A stretch of 64,000 nucleotides of DNA from Escherichia phage FH3, in the sequence record OR886155.1; one strand, written 5' to 3'. The translations under genes and the position numbers were made by a program. Each line of letters begins with the position of its first letter. Within the stretch, counting starts at the first letter, position 1. Positions 838-63,505 of this stretch are shown here, piece after piece. A model generated the notes under the pieces. That model was given only the letters and a program-made list of their open reading frames with translations. It was not told where the DNA came from and searched no databases.

Positions 838-926
838 TAGCGAGGATGACAGGGTTCGAACCTGCATACTCCAATTACTTCTTTAACGACCGCTTAGAAG
901 GCGGGGAAGATACATCCTCGCTAGAA
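838..926 (-). other. tRNA-like structured element (not a canonical tRNA)
   Basis: Minus strand: 9-bp helix GCGAGGATG/CATCCTCGC closing a GCAGG-TTCGAAC-CCTGT T-arm-like hairpin and a CCGC-CTTCTAA-GCGG hairpin; no D-arm could be placed. Confidence 0.25.
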
Positions 927-57605: not shown

Positions 57606-58262
57606 TTAATTCTCCAAAGTTTTCTTCAGAGCTGCCCACGAGATTGGGTAGAGCTTAGCCATCTCTTCATCTACGGATTTAGCAAACACTCGAACTTCAT
57701 ATTGAGCGTGAGAGGATAGTCGCTGACGGCACAACTCAAACCAGCCATACAAAGAACCAGTCCACACCCACTCAGTGATCATCCCCTGAGGAAGAACAAA
57801 TCGAGCTTGCTCTGGTGCAATAAATTCAATCAACTTATCATATGCTGCTAAAGAAGCTTCATATGCATCGTTAATCAACATTAATGCTTCAGCTCGCTCT
57901 CCGTCGATGAGTTGAATCCCTGAACCTGCATGGAGGTCCGAAGGTCTCGCAAAAATCTCTTTAGGGATGAAGACTTCAACTGCTCCATCTTTATACCGCC
58001 GGGACATTTCGTTCCACGAGAATCCAACCTGATGCTTTCCCAGCTGTCTCGCAATTGCGATAGGTGCTTTGCATCGGAAACTGACTTGCGGGTGTCGGAA
58101 TGGAGTACAGTGTTTTTCCCGTGCAAGGAAGTTGATAAGTTTTGTGTCTCTCTCATTTAAGTCACCTTCTCGAACAACACCGAAAGATACTCTAGCTGCA
58201 TTGACTACAGATTTGTCACTTCCCATTGCTTCAATCAGTGTTGCTTGTAGTTGTTCGTTCAA
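57606..58262 (-). CDS. thyX: ThyX-like flavin-dependent thymidylate synthase homolog with atypical signature motif
   Basis: HCTPFRH...KAPIAIARQL...SWNEMSRRY fits ThyX; the position where I expect the RHR motif reads K-H-Q. Confidence 0.7.
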   Translation of the reverse strand: MNEQLQATLIEAMGSDKSVVNAARVSFGVVREGDLNERDTKLINFLAREKHCTPFRHPQVSFRCKAPIAIARQLGKHQVGFSWNEMSRRYKDGAVEVFIPKEIFARPSDLHAGSGIQLIDGERAEALMLINDAYEASLAAYDKLIEFIAPEQARFVLPQGMITEWVWTGSLYGWFELCRQRLSSHAQYEVRVFAKSVDEEMAKLYPISWAALKKTLEN

Positions 58263-58701
58263 TTAAAAGTTCCTTTTTTCGATTCATGTAAACTTGATGA
58301 GCTTCTTCGGCAGTTCCATACATACCTAGATGTATATCTACTTTATCAATACAAATAACAGCCCTATATCTGATAGTGCCTGATCTGTATTTGACAACCT
58401 TAACACCTTGAAGCCCTGTTTCCTTGTTTGATACTCTAGCCCCGAACTGGTTGTGGCAGTTTGTCGAGGTGTCCACCAATCTCAAGTTCTGTATTGAGTT
58501 GTTCTTCTTATTTCTATCGATATGGTCTATCTGAGAAGAAGGCCATTCTCCATAGTAAAAGAACCATGCCACTTTATGAGCTTTGTGTACTTTCCCTTTA
58601 AACCGCAGGGTTATGTACTTACTTCGAGTTCCTCCTAATTTCTTACCTTTTCGAAAGAACTCTCCAGTTTCAGGGATATACTCTAAATCATCGATTACCA
58701 T
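58231..58701 (-). CDS. HNH homing endonuclease with AP2-like DNA-binding domain
   Basis: SQIDHIDRNKKNNSIQNLRLV motif; C-terminal ...HLGMYGTAEEAHQVY. Confidence 0.7.
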   Translation of the reverse strand: MVIDDLEYIPETGEFFRKGKKLGGTRSKYITLRFKGKVHKAHKVAWFFYYGEWPSSQIDHIDRNKKNNSIQNLRLVDTSTNCHNQFGARVSNKETGLQGVKVVKYRSGTIRYRAVICIDKVDIHLGMYGTAEEAHQVYMNRKKELLIERTTTSNTD

Positions 58702-60382: not shown

Positions 60383-60576
60383 TAGTAATGTACCTTTCCG
60401 CTGATATAAACACGACCAGAGGAATACTCTCTGGCCTTATGAATGCTAATACTCTTAGTTAAGTCCATATTGAACATAGACTTTTTAAACTCTCGAGCTT
60501 GTTGGCGGGTAGGTAGTGCAGTCATAGTCATACCACCTGATGCCCACTTAATCTTCGCTAACCAGAATTGTCTCAT
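60382..60576 (-). CDS. small basic protein, paralog pair member 2
   Basis: MRQFWLAKIKW... Confidence 0.35.
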   Translation of the reverse strand: MRQFWLAKIKWASGGMTMTALPTRQQAREFKKSMFNMDLTKSISIHKAREYSSGRVYISGKVHY

Positions 60577-60629
60577 TTATCTTTCATCCACATTAAAGGA
60601 GAGATGAAGTCTACTTCTCATAGACTTCG

Positions 60630-61100
60630 CTAGGAGTTTTGCCTCTTCAAGAGTTTTACTCCATACACAGACTCACGTTTACCATCTTTTTGAACAGATA
60701 CACAGAACGTCCCGCCCTTCTCTTGGTAGACATTCTTAACTCCTAGCTTGTTATCAACCCTTGTCTTAGCATTCTGACTGTTCTCAGAGTGAGAGCACTT
60801 TCTCAGGTTAGTTTCTTCTAGGTTTTCTCTGTTACCATCGGCATGATCTATTTGATATTCATCCGATAAATCCTCACCAGTATAAAGAACAAAAAGAATC
60901 CTATGATTATGGACACGAACTCCTCCTAAGGGAATTTGATAATACCCATCTTTTGTGAGCTTGCCATCAGGTTTACCTACTATATCATTAGCAAACTTAC
61001 TAGGCTTCCTTTTCCAAGAAAGCCCTGAAGGGGATGACATGTCTATATTAAAGAGATCAACTACTTCATCATAGCATATCAGCATGATTTGTTCCACCAA
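60630..61100 (-). CDS. HNH homing endonuclease
   Basis: YQIDHADGNRENLEETNLRKCSHSEN motif. Confidence 0.7.
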   Translation of the reverse strand: MVEQIMLICYDEVVDLFNIDMSSPSGLSWKRKPSKFANDIVGKPDGKLTKDGYYQIPLGGVRVHNHRILFVLYTGEDLSDEYQIDHADGNRENLEETNLRKCSHSENSQNAKTRVDNKLGVKNVYQEKGGTFCVSVQKDGKRESVYGVKLLKRQNS

Positions 61101-61623
61101 AAGCTTTTGTTGGCCCTTGTTGGTTATTGTATGAACCTTTAGTTGCGTAGCTATCCTCTTCCGAGGATGAGTGTTTAAAGAATTCCATCTGACCGATACG
61201 CATTCCCGGCTTGATCAGCAGAGAGTGGTGCTGTAGGACGTTCTTGAATTCCATAGTTAACTGACTGCCATGCCAACCACCGTCAGCATGACCAGCGTGC
61301 ATGTGCTCTAAGAAGCAACGACCGACAGTAGATCGTAGCATGAAGTCACAGCTAATGTTGTCTGGAAGGTTGAATGTCTCCACTGTATGAGCTAAGAAAC
61401 ACTCACCCGGTTTGATCACCAACCCTTCCTCTGGAATCATAACCTCATTGAAATTAGGGGATTCTTTAGCAGAGATATCAACAACCCCATTAGCTGCACC
61501 TTCCATCAGAACACGATCTCCAATACGAACATCAATGCTGGAGGAATTAACAGCTGAGTGTGGTGCATCAATAACACCATCATCAATTAATTTATGTAAC
61601 TCTGGGCTTCCTAGTAAACTCAT
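61069..61623 (-). CDS. dCTP deaminase/dUTPase-superfamily enzyme (Dcd-like)
   Basis: IDVRIG, RSTVGR, GWHG...LEF.N, KPGMRIGQ and YNNQQG segments match the Dcd layout. Confidence 0.75.
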   Translation of the reverse strand: MSLLGSPELHKLIDDGVIDAPHSAVNSSSIDVRIGDRVLMEGAANGVVDISAKESPNFNEVMIPEEGLVIKPGECFLAHTVETFNLPDNISCDFMLRSTVGRCFLEHMHAGHADGGWHGSQLTMEFKNVLQHHSLLIKPGMRIGQMEFFKHSSSEEDSYATKGSYNNQQGPTKAFGGTNHADML

Positions 61624-61632
61624 TCTTATTCC

Positions 61633-62946
61633 TTAGTTATTTGTTTCCATGTCAAAAGAGATTCCACGACCCGCTTCATCGGCAAACCGAACTGTACGGG
61701 TTTGAGGTTCTAATACTTCAGGGTTGTTGGCAATAAAGCGATCAGCGAGATTATCTACCACATCTTGGGCCACACCTTCATCAGTCCACACAGCCCTAAC
61801 AGGTGCGTTGATATCACCAACAGCAAAACCCTGACCAGAGAACTGGTGACGGCTAACAGTCAAGCCGTTTGATCGACCACGAGAAGGACTAGACATCCAT
61901 TGCTCCATAGAATCACTTGTAATACCAAGAGCTTCTTCAAAAGATGTTCTACGAGAAGAGCTTAGATTTCGTGCTTCATTTGCTCGACGTCTTGTAGGGG
62001 CTACAAACACCCCTTCAATTGCATTGTGTCGGTTAGGTTCGTCTTCTCTACCAAGCAGATCACCACCTGTATTAGTTGTTAAATTTGTCAACCCTTCAGA
62101 CCAATACGCATGAATCTGACCGGAACCGTGAAGACTAGACATAATCTGAATCTCTTCATAAGGGATTCCAAAAAATCGACTCATGTCTCGGTTAACACAA
62201 TATAGAGCACTTGTTGTATCCTCAATAAGAGCAACCTGACCTATTTCATTAACAAGATGACTGACTGGCTGAGGTGTAGGAAGGTATCGAGTTTGGGCCA
62301 TATATTGATATGCAACAGATGGGGCTGAGAATCTTAACACTTGTGAATTAGGCCACTTTTTGTGAACGTATCTGATTTCACGACTAGAAACAACCACAGG
62401 GCAAGGGGCGGTCATAGCTAAATACCCATGAGGGGTCATGAATAAGTTGTCAAGAGTCATCGCACCACGGCACATCATAGGAAAGTTATCCAATACCTCT
62501 TCGATAGAAGTAGGATAATTAAACATGAATTGGATACGAACCCCATTCCACTGAAACTCAATAATATCAGTGAATGTTAATTGAGAACCCCCAGCATAGG
62601 ATTCGTTTGTAGCTTCAGCAAGAAGAGATGAATACTCAATATCTTGAGACTCAAGCCACTCTTTAACGTTACTTTCAACTTCTCGTCCGAGATCTTGCCA
62701 CTGCTCATGACGGATGAAAGTATTTCGAGTTCTTGGGGCCTGTCCTCTGACAATAAAGATATCAATGTCATGCGGAGCTGTGTTATTAAGCACAGCATCA
62801 CGAATAGCCCCACCAGTGATGATAGGACAAATACAGTCTGGAATCAAGTTGTTGTTAATCAGCTGTTCAATGAAGTGACGACCAACAGTGATATCCGGTT
62901 GTTGAGCAACCTTATCTTCAATTCGGTTAATCGGGATAACAATCAT
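61633..62946 (-). CDS. nucleotidyltransferase with CCA-adding-enzyme/poly(A)-polymerase-type head motif
   Basis: ITGGAIRDAVLNNTAPHDIDIFIV corresponds to the G-G-A-V-R-D ... D-x-D head signature; the remaining ~380 aa not recognised. Confidence 0.5.
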   Translation of the reverse strand: MIVIPINRIEDKVAQQPDITVGRHFIEQLINNNLIPDCICPIITGGAIRDAVLNNTAPHDIDIFIVRGQAPRTRNTFIRHEQWQDLGREVESNVKEWLESQDIEYSSLLAEATNESYAGGSQLTFTDIIEFQWNGVRIQFMFNYPTSIEEVLDNFPMMCRGAMTLDNLFMTPHGYLAMTAPCPVVVSSREIRYVHKKWPNSQVLRFSAPSVAYQYMAQTRYLPTPQPVSHLVNEIGQVALIEDTTSALYCVNRDMSRFFGIPYEEIQIMSSLHGSGQIHAYWSEGLTNLTTNTGGDLLGREDEPNRHNAIEGVFVAPTRRRANEARNLSSSRRTSFEEALGITSDSMEQWMSSPSRGRSNGLTVSRHQFSGQGFAVGDINAPVRAVWTDEGVAQDVVDNLADRFIANNPEVLEPQTRTVRFADEAGRGISFDMETNN

Positions 62947-62947
62947 T

Positions 62948-63505
62948 TTACATTTTCCAATATAATGAAGGTGGGTCGTAAGGGTCAAATCCTGTGATTT
63001 CACACAAGAAAAGATAAACCTTAACAGTTAAGTTAACGTCCTGTTCACAATAAGTAAACATATCTTCAGTGAAAGCATCCCATGCTTCCTCTTGCTCACC
63101 ATAATCGCCCTTAAGTTCTCCTAAGAACTCACCCCACTGCTTCAAACCATGACCCCTTGGGCCACGTCTAGGGTCGCCTTTCGGATACTCAGGACTGTCA
63201 CCAATACGGTCAGGTTTAAGATATCGACTAAGACATAAAGTGTCAAAGACGTTAAAATTATATTTAATCAAAGAGGGATACATCTTCTTCAGAGCAGGTA
63301 AGTCGAAGTCAATAATATTATGACCCACGAGCACATCTGCTTCTGTCAGTTTACGAATCCCGTCTTCGATTTGGTGAGGCCGATAGCCCCACCTTTCACC
63401 AGTTTCAACATCGAAGATATAAATACACCATACTTTAGTTATGTCATCGTACAGTGCATTACTCTCGATATCGAATGCAAACACTTTCTTCTTTTTCTTT
63501 ACCAC
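62948..63505 (-). CDS. stand-alone 3'-5' proofreading exonuclease (DnaQ/Pol A exo-like)
   Basis: Exo I FAFDIESN, Exo [15 protein letters not shown], Exo [11 protein letters not shown]. Confidence 0.7.

Follow-up and report, generated by a model that had tools for sequence, protein, structure and literature searches.

A predicted class-II-type nucleotidyltransferase of Kuravirus phages, remotely related to Gad2 and unlike canonical CCA-adding enzymes

The gene considered here encodes a nucleotidyltransferase (NTase) of Escherichia phage FH3, and lies in a stretch of 64,000 nucleotides (nt) of sequence record OR886155.1, which was analysed at its full length and is hereafter called the window. 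The coding sequence occupies positions 61633..62946 on the minus strand and is complete according to the list of open reading frames (ORFs), specifying 437 amino acids (aa) and a stop codon. Upstream, on the same strand, lies the gene for a DNA polymerase A 3'-5' exonuclease subunit (62948..63505), whose stop codon is found one base before the ATG of the NTase, while the dCTP deaminase gene (Dcd; 61069..61623, minus strand) begins 9 nt past the NTase stop. These neighbours bear out the siting between a Dcd-like gene and the exonuclease/helicase genes proposed in an initial annotation of the window. A scan for promoters and terminators around the gene returned nothing exceeding the expectation from shuffled sequence and, because of this lack of signals together with the tight spacing to the exonuclease and Dcd genes, the NTase gene appears to be read within a primase/helicase - exonuclease - NTase - Dcd operon.

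The gene and its broad annotation are already known and no new gene is involved, since the NTase has been catalogued and named in both RefSeq and PHROGs. In particular, Escherichia phage 1-6af (OR983333.1) carries the 1314-nt stretch at 100% identity, and about 30 further Kuravirus genomes match it at 90-92% nt identity, including phiEco32 (90% over the ORF), SU10 and, from the BASEL collection, Bas90 and Bas91. The orthologues are phiEco32 gp73, or phi32_73, which is equally long and labelled 'nucleotidyltransferase' in RefSeq, and SU10 CDS74; the protein also matches phrog_12715 'nucleotidyltransferase' over its full length (E 1.9e-248). In published proteomics, one peptide of an orthologue was detected and placed among the early gene products. 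The locus formed by Dcd and the NTase is moreover flagged in the BASEL paper (PMC11990801), so that the initial annotation, which had put the gene forward as its leading candidate for an undescribed activity, went too far in this respect. What is new here is the exclusion of a CCA-adding reading, the placement of the protein by way of Gad2 and of small podophage NTases, a domain map, and the extent of divergence between genera.

Across the three genera of Gordonclarkvirinae and in metagenomic relatives, about 205 residues at the N terminus of the orthologues are conserved, up to HKKWP, past which the family sequences are hard to align and protein lengths range from 270 to 480 aa. In the FH3 protein, all of whose features lie on the minus strand, this conserved catalytic NTase domain comprises residues 1-205 (62332..62946) and consists of an N-terminal strand and helices followed by a class-II-type head. 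It is followed by a small, family-specific helical subdomain (residues 206-284, 62095..62331) with helices at residues 209-220, 247-259 and 263-270, modelled with a predicted local distance difference test score (pLDDT) of 78-94; this subdomain retains just 23-27% identity across genera and shows no match to the neck of class II enzymes, with at most 165 residues aligned. The remainder is a disordered tail (residues 285-437, 61636..62094), rich in R, G, N, S and T, variable in length and with a conserved end ...RFADEAGRGISFDMETNN, in which orthologues show indels and poor conservation. AlphaFold2 is confident only for residues 1-284 of the full protein, residues 285-437 having pLDDT values of 25-46, and a model of residues 1-284 built with 34 diverse sequences reaches a pLDDT of 89.7 and a predicted template modelling score of 0.87. 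Within Kuravirus, the catalytic domain has a ratio of nonsynonymous to synonymous substitution rates (dN/dS) of 0.06-0.10 and the helical subdomain one of 0.10-0.27, whereas the tail reaches 0.44-0.84, a contrast which indicates purifying selection on the enzyme domain and relaxed constraint on the tail.

The tail has two further peculiarities. Its last residue is aromatic in 9 of the 25 family representatives (clusters at 50% identity), compared with an aromatic content of 7.7% in the tails (p = 6e-5); endings of this type in family members P0045-P0078 are -SF, -DF, -WQW, -WTF and -FNF, and the Kuravirus proteins end in ...GISFDMETNN. Moreover, within Kuravirus the dS of the tail (0.08-0.16) is far below that of the N-terminal domain (0.37-0.60), which may stem either from a mosaic origin or from constraint on the nucleotide sequence itself.

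In motif A (residues 43-66, ITGGAIRDAVLNNTAPHDIDIFIV, 62749..62820), a helix-turn containing the GG pair is followed by the metal-binding residues D60 and D62. Specifically, the GGxVRD element and the DxD on the next strand (residues 45-62, GGAIRDAVLNNTAPHDID) are invariant across the family, and a six-frame translation of the window contains the pattern GG[AGST][VILM]RD-x5-15-DxD a single time, shuffled sequence giving an expectation of 0.005. Residues G45, G46, R49, D50, D60, D62 and Q139 do not vary among 34 sequences whose identity falls as low as 22%, and E99, E130, F155-P156, Y193 and K197 are nearly invariant in at least one family alignment. Among the latter, E130 (62557..62559) is located on the strand after the DxD strand, within beta-strand 125-133 of the model, P0055, a small relative, having Asp in its place. 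The analogy with Pol-beta NTases makes E130 the likely third catalytic carboxylate, and D60, D62 and E130 would together form the predicted metal-binding catalytic set.

Past motif A the resemblance to class II tRNA nucleotidyltransferases fades. Residues 152-163 (LDNFPMMCRGAM, 62458..62493) occupy the position of class II motif B (RRDxTIN) and of the FDFTV element of the anti-defence protein Gad2, and read LDNFPMM, so that Pro156 stands where class II enzymes, Gad2 and the small phage NTases have Asp; within the family F155 never varies and P156 almost never does, whereas the small relatives P0055 and P0056 retain FD. Likewise, residues 183-199 (PVVVSSREIRYVHKKWP, 62350..62400) lie where Gad2 has its YPxxSxxRxxKY helix and class II enzymes their motif D (EDPxRxLRxxRF), and here the helix reads PVVVSSREIRYVHKKW, with Y193 and K197 nearly invariant and the templating Glu-Asp...Arg missing. 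In hhalign alignments chained through Gad2, therefore, neither motif B (RRD, ribose recognition) nor motif D (EDxxR, the protein template for CTP and ATP) is found in the NTase; because their equivalents are altered, the residues with which class II enzymes choose CTP and ATP are missing.

Profile searches lead to the same point. A search with PF01743, which the initial annotation had proposed as a check, did return a match of the PolyA_pol head to residues 43-119 (19.1 bits, E 0.0018, profile positions 3-77 of 126), starting at motif A, but one below the gathering threshold of 23, and the Bas87 and Bas89 orthologues gave 13.6 bits or no match; no PolyA_pol_RNAbd domain was found in the NTase with Pfam. 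The family profile reaches solved CCA-adding enzymes through motif A only (E 0.0016), hhalign against E. coli Cca and PcnB aligns 27 columns only, none of them past motif A, and no chain of the PDB was matched past this motif by either the Kuravirus or the Gad2 profiles. A phmmer search of the NTase against PDB sequences gave nothing meaningful, and the NCBIfam and PADLOC models returned zero matches to it.

Structure prediction and comparison, also suggested in the initial annotation, showed that the head-domain fold is present in the model and that its nearest solved relatives all work on RNA 3' ends. Lower matches are TENT5/FAM46 (7.4-7.6), CdnE (7.3), terminal uridylyltransferases, Pol X family polymerases (6.3-6.9), 2la3 (6.3) and MenT1 (5.8). 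The entry 2la3, a stand-alone 'CCA-adding enzyme head domain' of Streptococcus pneumoniae (NP_344798.1), scores below the full class II enzymes. Foldseek ranks the structural relatives in the same order, about half of the ordered region being alignable. The net charge of the domain was also considered as a clue to the substrate and dropped, as the domain is acidic (isoelectric point 4.5-5.1) and so is the head of E. coli Cca.

Compared with class II enzymes (such as E. coli Cca and PcnB; PDB 1miv, 3aql, 4wby and 1ou5), the FH3 protein lacks RRD and EDxxR, and only about 150 residues are alignable. The RNA- or tRNA-binding neck, body and tail domains, which are helical, are also absent, their place being taken by a helical subdomain of 80 aa and a disordered tail of 150 aa. 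Its chemistry is probably of the same kind as that of CCA-adding enzymes and poly(A) polymerases, but membership in that family is rejected, because both the templating residues and the helical domains that hold the tRNA are absent. We are accordingly highly confident that the protein is a predicted active NTase of the superfamily comprising class II heads and Gad2, and not a canonical CCA-adding enzyme. The description given in the initial annotation was accurate, as the motif, Pfam, hhalign and ARAGORN checks agree: the GGAIRD...DID signature of residues 43-66 is single and unique in the window, no familiar body domain follows it, and ARAGORN found no tRNA in the 64-kb window.

The relationship which extends beyond motif A is that with Gad2 (Gabija anti-defence protein 2), the sole member of this superfamily with a known phenotype, namely inhibition of Gabija (Yirmiya et al. 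preprint). Knockout of Gad2 leaves Bacillus phage SPbetaL7 fully sensitive to Gabija, a homologue from a Brevibacillus prophage blocks co-expressed Gabija, and a homologue rescues SPbeta; the NTase domain of Gad2 is itself an AlphaFold prediction (Yirmiya et al. preprint). Using the eight Gad2 homologues of the supplementary table of that study, hhalign with the Kuravirus-type profile gave a probability of 94.5% (E 7.7e-8) over 125 columns, pairing residues 42-194 with Gad2 residues 28-165, an alignment that far exceeds the 27 columns obtained with Cca and PcnB. Reciprocal hidden Markov model (HMM) searches reached 24-28 bits on family members, and the Kuravirus-type HMM up to 23.8 bits on Gad2 homologues, the experimentally verified protein of B. 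laterosporus scoring 8.8 bits. The Gad2 profile matched nothing in the PDB, and for this reason there is no solved Gad2 structure to compare; its alignment with Cca and PcnB is weak (44%) and places FDFTV on motif B and YPxxSxxRxxKY on motif D.

Residues that are invariant in the eight Gad2 homologues are A30, G31, G32, F38, D45, D47, F50, F106, D107, T109, F128, L137, P146, R152 and Y156. The NTase has counterparts of the GG pair, of DxD and, with F64, F155, P183, R189 and Y193, of further members of this set, the last three aligning with Gad2 P146, R152 and Y156. The full set is not present: D107 corresponds to P156, T109 to a Met, and F128, part of HEDF, has no counterpart. The two proteins are alike in being phage-encoded, in their GG...DxD head and in homology over the whole domain at profile level (Gad2 being represented by PF26128, SPbetaL7 ORF159 and the Brevibacillus laterosporus prophage homologue). 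They differ in that Gad2 has 394-400 aa with a structured C-terminal region of about 230 aa, absent here, as the alignment ends at Gad2 residue 165; in that the Kuravirus NTase, unlike Bacillus Gad2, keeps the class II 'RD' after GG; and in their setting, the former belonging to a replication operon while the latter is found in an anti-defence locus, at tRNA arrays or within RNA-repair clusters.

A second group of relatives is formed by small stand-alone phage enzymes. The profile of phrog_1614 matches residues 42-156 only of the NTase (E 1.6e-7) and also Gad2 (E 2.3e-6), and among the predicted viral structures of BFVD the best matches other than orthologues are stand-alone NTases of 186-215 aa from T7-like and phiKMV-like phages (TM-score 0.54-0.62). 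An exhaustive profile search collected 420 cluster representatives at E <1e-3, of which about 30 are close (E <1e-20) and the remaining 390 or so are remote and mostly 180-250 aa long; one consists of four true class II enzymes in tandem, and the longer proteins among these matches carry no informative extra domain as fusion partner. The phrog_1614 NTases, such as LKD16 ORF16, DU_RP_I gp11 and the protein of Providencia phage PS3 labelled 'Poly A polymerase head domain-containing protein', share with the Kuravirus NTase the head domain, a podophage host genome and replication genes as neighbours. They are however only about 190-215 aa long, without helical extension or tail, and keep the Asp of FD and the H.DF motif, and the Kuravirus clade has a PHROG of its own (12715). 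On these profile comparisons, the Kuravirus NTase is related to phrog_1614 and not a member of it, and the phage stand-alone class-II-type heads are placed in one predicted superfamily, of which the Kuravirus clade is a divergent branch rather than bona fide Gad2.

The distribution of the gene contributes a different kind of evidence. NTase matches were found in 97 phage records, and so was the exonuclease subunit at at least 60% identity, the numbers corresponding within Gordonclarkvirinae; synteny is kept even in metagenomic relatives at 32-39% identity. Within this block the NTase has diverged much further than any other gene, with 34% and 32% identity to the Bas89 and Bas87 proteins, respectively (41% and 39% in the N-terminal domain), whereas in the same comparisons its neighbours retain 90-91% (helicase C-terminus), 79-86% (exonuclease), 92-94% (a 109-aa protein), 82-84% (Dps-like protein), 76% (Trx) and 92% (ThyX). 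In Aeromonas phage LAh_9 (98 kb), furthermore, the order is primase/helicase - exonuclease - 123-aa ORF - Dcd, with an unrelated ORF in the slot of the NTase (L016 6546-6917); the possibility that this ORF is a degraded NTase was rejected, its hhalign probability being 0.7%. Universal presence joined with strong divergence and replaceability makes the pattern expected for a host-interaction gene and not for a core part of the replisome.

True Gad2 homologues, found in 137 phage records, none of them in Gordonclarkvirinae, offer hints about the substrate. In Mydovirus, Seunavirus and Henunavirus (Vequintavirinae), the Gad2 homologue is the first coding sequence directly downstream of about 14-20 tRNA genes (L017 5001-6458, L018 5001-6425 and L019 5001-6458). 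In jumbo phage CBB, the homologue gp079 (L020 4713-5825; hhalign 100%, E 5e-46) is surrounded by genes for an HD-domain protein, RNA ligase 1 (Rnl1) and polynucleotide kinase (Pnkp), that is, by the classical tRNA-repair set. These contexts may point to tRNA or RNA as the substrate of Gad2 itself. In addition, P2 OLD and PARIS AriB, TOPRIM relatives of GajA, cleave tRNAs, while GajA itself, according to published descriptions, cuts DNA and senses ends (PMC12445682); taken with the Gad2 contexts, this keeps RNA or tRNA plausible as the substrate of the superfamily. The observations are not directly transferable to Kuravirus, since the fully annotated Bas91 lists no RNA ligase or Pnkp and its tRNA-Arg encodes its own CCA.

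The reading that we prefer, tentatively and with a confidence that falls a little short of even, is that of an accessory 3'-end nucleotidyltransferase which would serve in host interaction or in countering defences, its acceptor being slightly more probably RNA than DNA. A template-independent class II head core, devoid of templating motifs and of tRNA-binding domains, would bind two Mg2+ ions through D60, D62 and E130 and transfer a nucleoside monophosphate from an NTP (or dNTP) onto the 3'-hydroxyl of a nucleic acid. RNA would be a somewhat more likely acceptor than DNA, by analogy with the solved relatives that act on RNA 3' ends and with the Gad2 homologues found near tRNA arrays and RNA-repair genes. 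The disordered tail would probably tether the enzyme to a partner, and the role would be an accessory one towards the host or its defences, rather than a core step of replication. The general idea of the initial annotation, an enzyme that answers host defences, receives in this way indirect support from the remote homology to Gad2 and from the genes that adjoin Gad2 homologues. A more ambitious version, which we regard as unlikely, would make Gad2-superfamily heads a phage-wide class of counter-defence enzymes that repair or mask 3' ends of tRNA or DNA cut or sensed by TOPRIM/OLD-type systems (Gabija, OLD, PARIS), the Kuravirus variant being tethered to its partner by the long tail, which has a conserved aromatic-containing tip.

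Several points weigh against the preferred reading. The NTase is universal and syntenic in Gordonclarkvirinae (97 of 97 records) and translationally coupled to replisome genes, and its divergence could look much the same after a single ancient replacement by a distant homologue as after an arms race. The link with Gad2 is remote: the Gad2 HMM gives 3 bits only on the FH3 protein itself, BLASTP finds no alignment with verified Gad2, the precomputed Pfam match to PF26128 ('Gad2'), listed for the identical protein P0001 and for numerous orthologues, is a weak one and is marked as such on P0003 and P0052, and the FD and HEDF signatures of Gad2 and phrog_1614 are missing along with the Gad2 C-terminal domain. 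Moreover, a February 2026 review (PMC12904381) still lists the Gad2 mechanism as unknown, our literature search returned no paper mentioning both Gabija and Kuravirus, and the accessible text of the BASEL paper reports restriction-modification (RM) systems and Fun/Z for these phages with no mention of Gabija. Finally, small homologues sit in replication clusters, LKD16 ORF16 of a Pseudomonas phage between helicase and ligase genes, gp11 of Ralstonia phage DU_RP_I between primase and DNA polymerase genes, and the small NTase of Vibrio phage VP506 near primase-helicase, polymerase and ATP-grasp genes, a siting that fits a replication-linked role as well.

These neighbourhoods bear above all on a replisome-linked enzyme which, recruited through its tail, would add nucleotides to DNA 3' ends such as nicks, breaks made by HNH endonucleases and genome or concatemer termini, either serving replication and repair or masking ends from end-sensing defences. 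We consider both versions of this alternative rather improbable, as the best structural relatives act on RNA; a core replication role, moreover, is contradicted by the unrelated gene in the LAh_9 slot and by an NTase far more divergent between genera than the genes of the replisome. Position is, in addition, weak evidence, because the replication clusters of T7-like phages also house unrelated accessory genes.

The structural ranking speaks similarly on the proposal that the acceptor is no nucleic acid but a small molecule or a protein of the host or its defences, which the enzyme would nucleotidylylate, or that it produces a nucleotide-derived inhibitor or signal. Folds with such activities do occur among the matches, but they rank below the RNA 3'-end NTases, and neither a PADLOC match nor a partner or fusion domain suggests a substrate of this type, so that this possibility appears quite unlikely.

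Repair of tRNA 3' ends (CCA) after damage by host tRNA-targeting defences, one of the hypotheses of the initial annotation, has in its favour the class II type of motif A and head fold, the presence of bona fide CCA-adding enzymes within RNA-repair modules of jumbo phages (PMC7824862), and the neighbours of Gad2 homologues, together with the tRNA cleavage by P2 OLD and PARIS AriB. It fares poorly in the light of the features described above: motifs B and D are absent, no neck, body or tail domain is available to hold a tRNA and residues 285-437 are disordered, PF01743 stays below its threshold with no PolyA_pol_RNAbd, Bas91 has neither Rnl nor Pnkp annotated and a tRNA-Arg that encodes CCA, and Cca is already supplied by the host. 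We therefore hold it to be very unlikely.

As regards tRNA genes, Bas91 has a single one, a canonical tRNA-Arg(UCU) with encoded CCA adjoining a homing endonuclease. At the same locus the window contains a tRNA-like element (841-919, minus strand; flanks 828-932), which scores 29.7 bits with the Rfam tRNA model against a gathering score of 29. It has a perfect 7-bp acceptor stem and T arm, an anticodon loop of the Arg(UCU) type, lacks a D arm and an encoded CCA, and carries a 20-nt insert in the variable region; its acceptor stem extends into the flanks to form a helix of about 20 bp (minimum free energy -46.4 kcal/mol, z -5.9). The element occurs in four phage records only (1-6af, 1-6bf, Bas93 and Bas94), and the idea that it is a dedicated substrate of the NTase was rejected because the NTase is present in all 97.

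The last alternative concerns restriction. According to the BASEL paper (PMC11990801), Gordonclarkvirinae resist the RM systems tested, and the Dcd and NTase locus is named as a possible cause, through a covalent DNA-modification step carried out by the two enzymes together. The window contains 9 EcoRI, 27 EcoRV, 12 EcoKI and 91 EcoP1 sites, and loss of sites is therefore no explanation for resistance to these enzymes. Avoidance is real and strong for CCWGG, with 7 sites against about 72 expected, and for GC-rich 6-bp palindromes, 12 of which are absent (PstI 0 against 17 expected in a Markov model), which suggests that in nature the phage DNA does encounter restriction; for GATC, 146 sites compare with an expectation of 237. 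DNA modification is nonetheless the least probable of the alternatives, and a highly unlikely one, as we know of no DNA-modification pathway with a class-II-type head NTase (no search aimed at one was made), deoxyuridine-containing DNA is unlikely in a phage that encodes ThyX and a deoxynucleoside monophosphate kinase, the avoidance of CCWGG and palindromes points to exposed DNA, and Dcd is swapped independently of the NTase, LAh_9 even having Dcd without it.

As to the accessory 3'-end enzyme that we prefer, its interest lies in the fact that Gordonclarkvirinae, coliphages which are frequent and employed in therapy, withstand many restriction systems, and that the divergent relationship with Gad2 turns a vague annotation into specific experiments, either outcome of which would inform on the workings of a whole superfamily of small phage NTases. 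If the wider counter-defence class were real, Kuravirus gp73 would become a tractable E. coli model (Bas90, Bas91) for the mechanism of Gad2, the BASEL collection including Kuraviruses that infect K-12, and might account in part for the unusual ability of Gordonclarkvirinae to withstand defences. If the role is a routine one, the finding amounts to a better annotation of a known gene.

The Dcd side of the locus has a history of its own. The Dcd protein is 100% identical to that of Bas89 and 56% identical to that of Bas87, and the stretch 60573-61641 of the window, which covers Dcd, the HNH gene that follows it and the final 9 nt of the NTase gene, is 92% identical in nt to Bas89, likewise a Gordonclarkvirinae phage, whose genes flanking it are only about 80-83% identical in nt to the window. 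The same stretch is not alignable to phiEco32 or Bas91, while both flanks are 93-96% identical to these two phages. It looks like the exchange of a cassette linked to a homing endonuclease, one boundary of which lies at the NTase stop codon, so that NTase and Dcd are not co-inherited.

Two HNH-type endonuclease ORFs of 156 aa each (58231-58701 and 60630-61100, minus strand) are inserted in the nucleotide-metabolism operon, their ends overlapping the adjacent ThyX/Trx and Dcd genes by 14-32 nt, and are not found at these positions in other Kuraviruses. Directly upstream of the helicase, Kuravirus genomes carry a cluster of ATP-grasp, amidoligase, GATase and gamma-glutamyl cyclotransferase genes. 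This arrangement is echoed in the VP506-type locus (L015 1-1168, 5001-5429), where the small NTase lies a few kb from an ATP-grasp gene.

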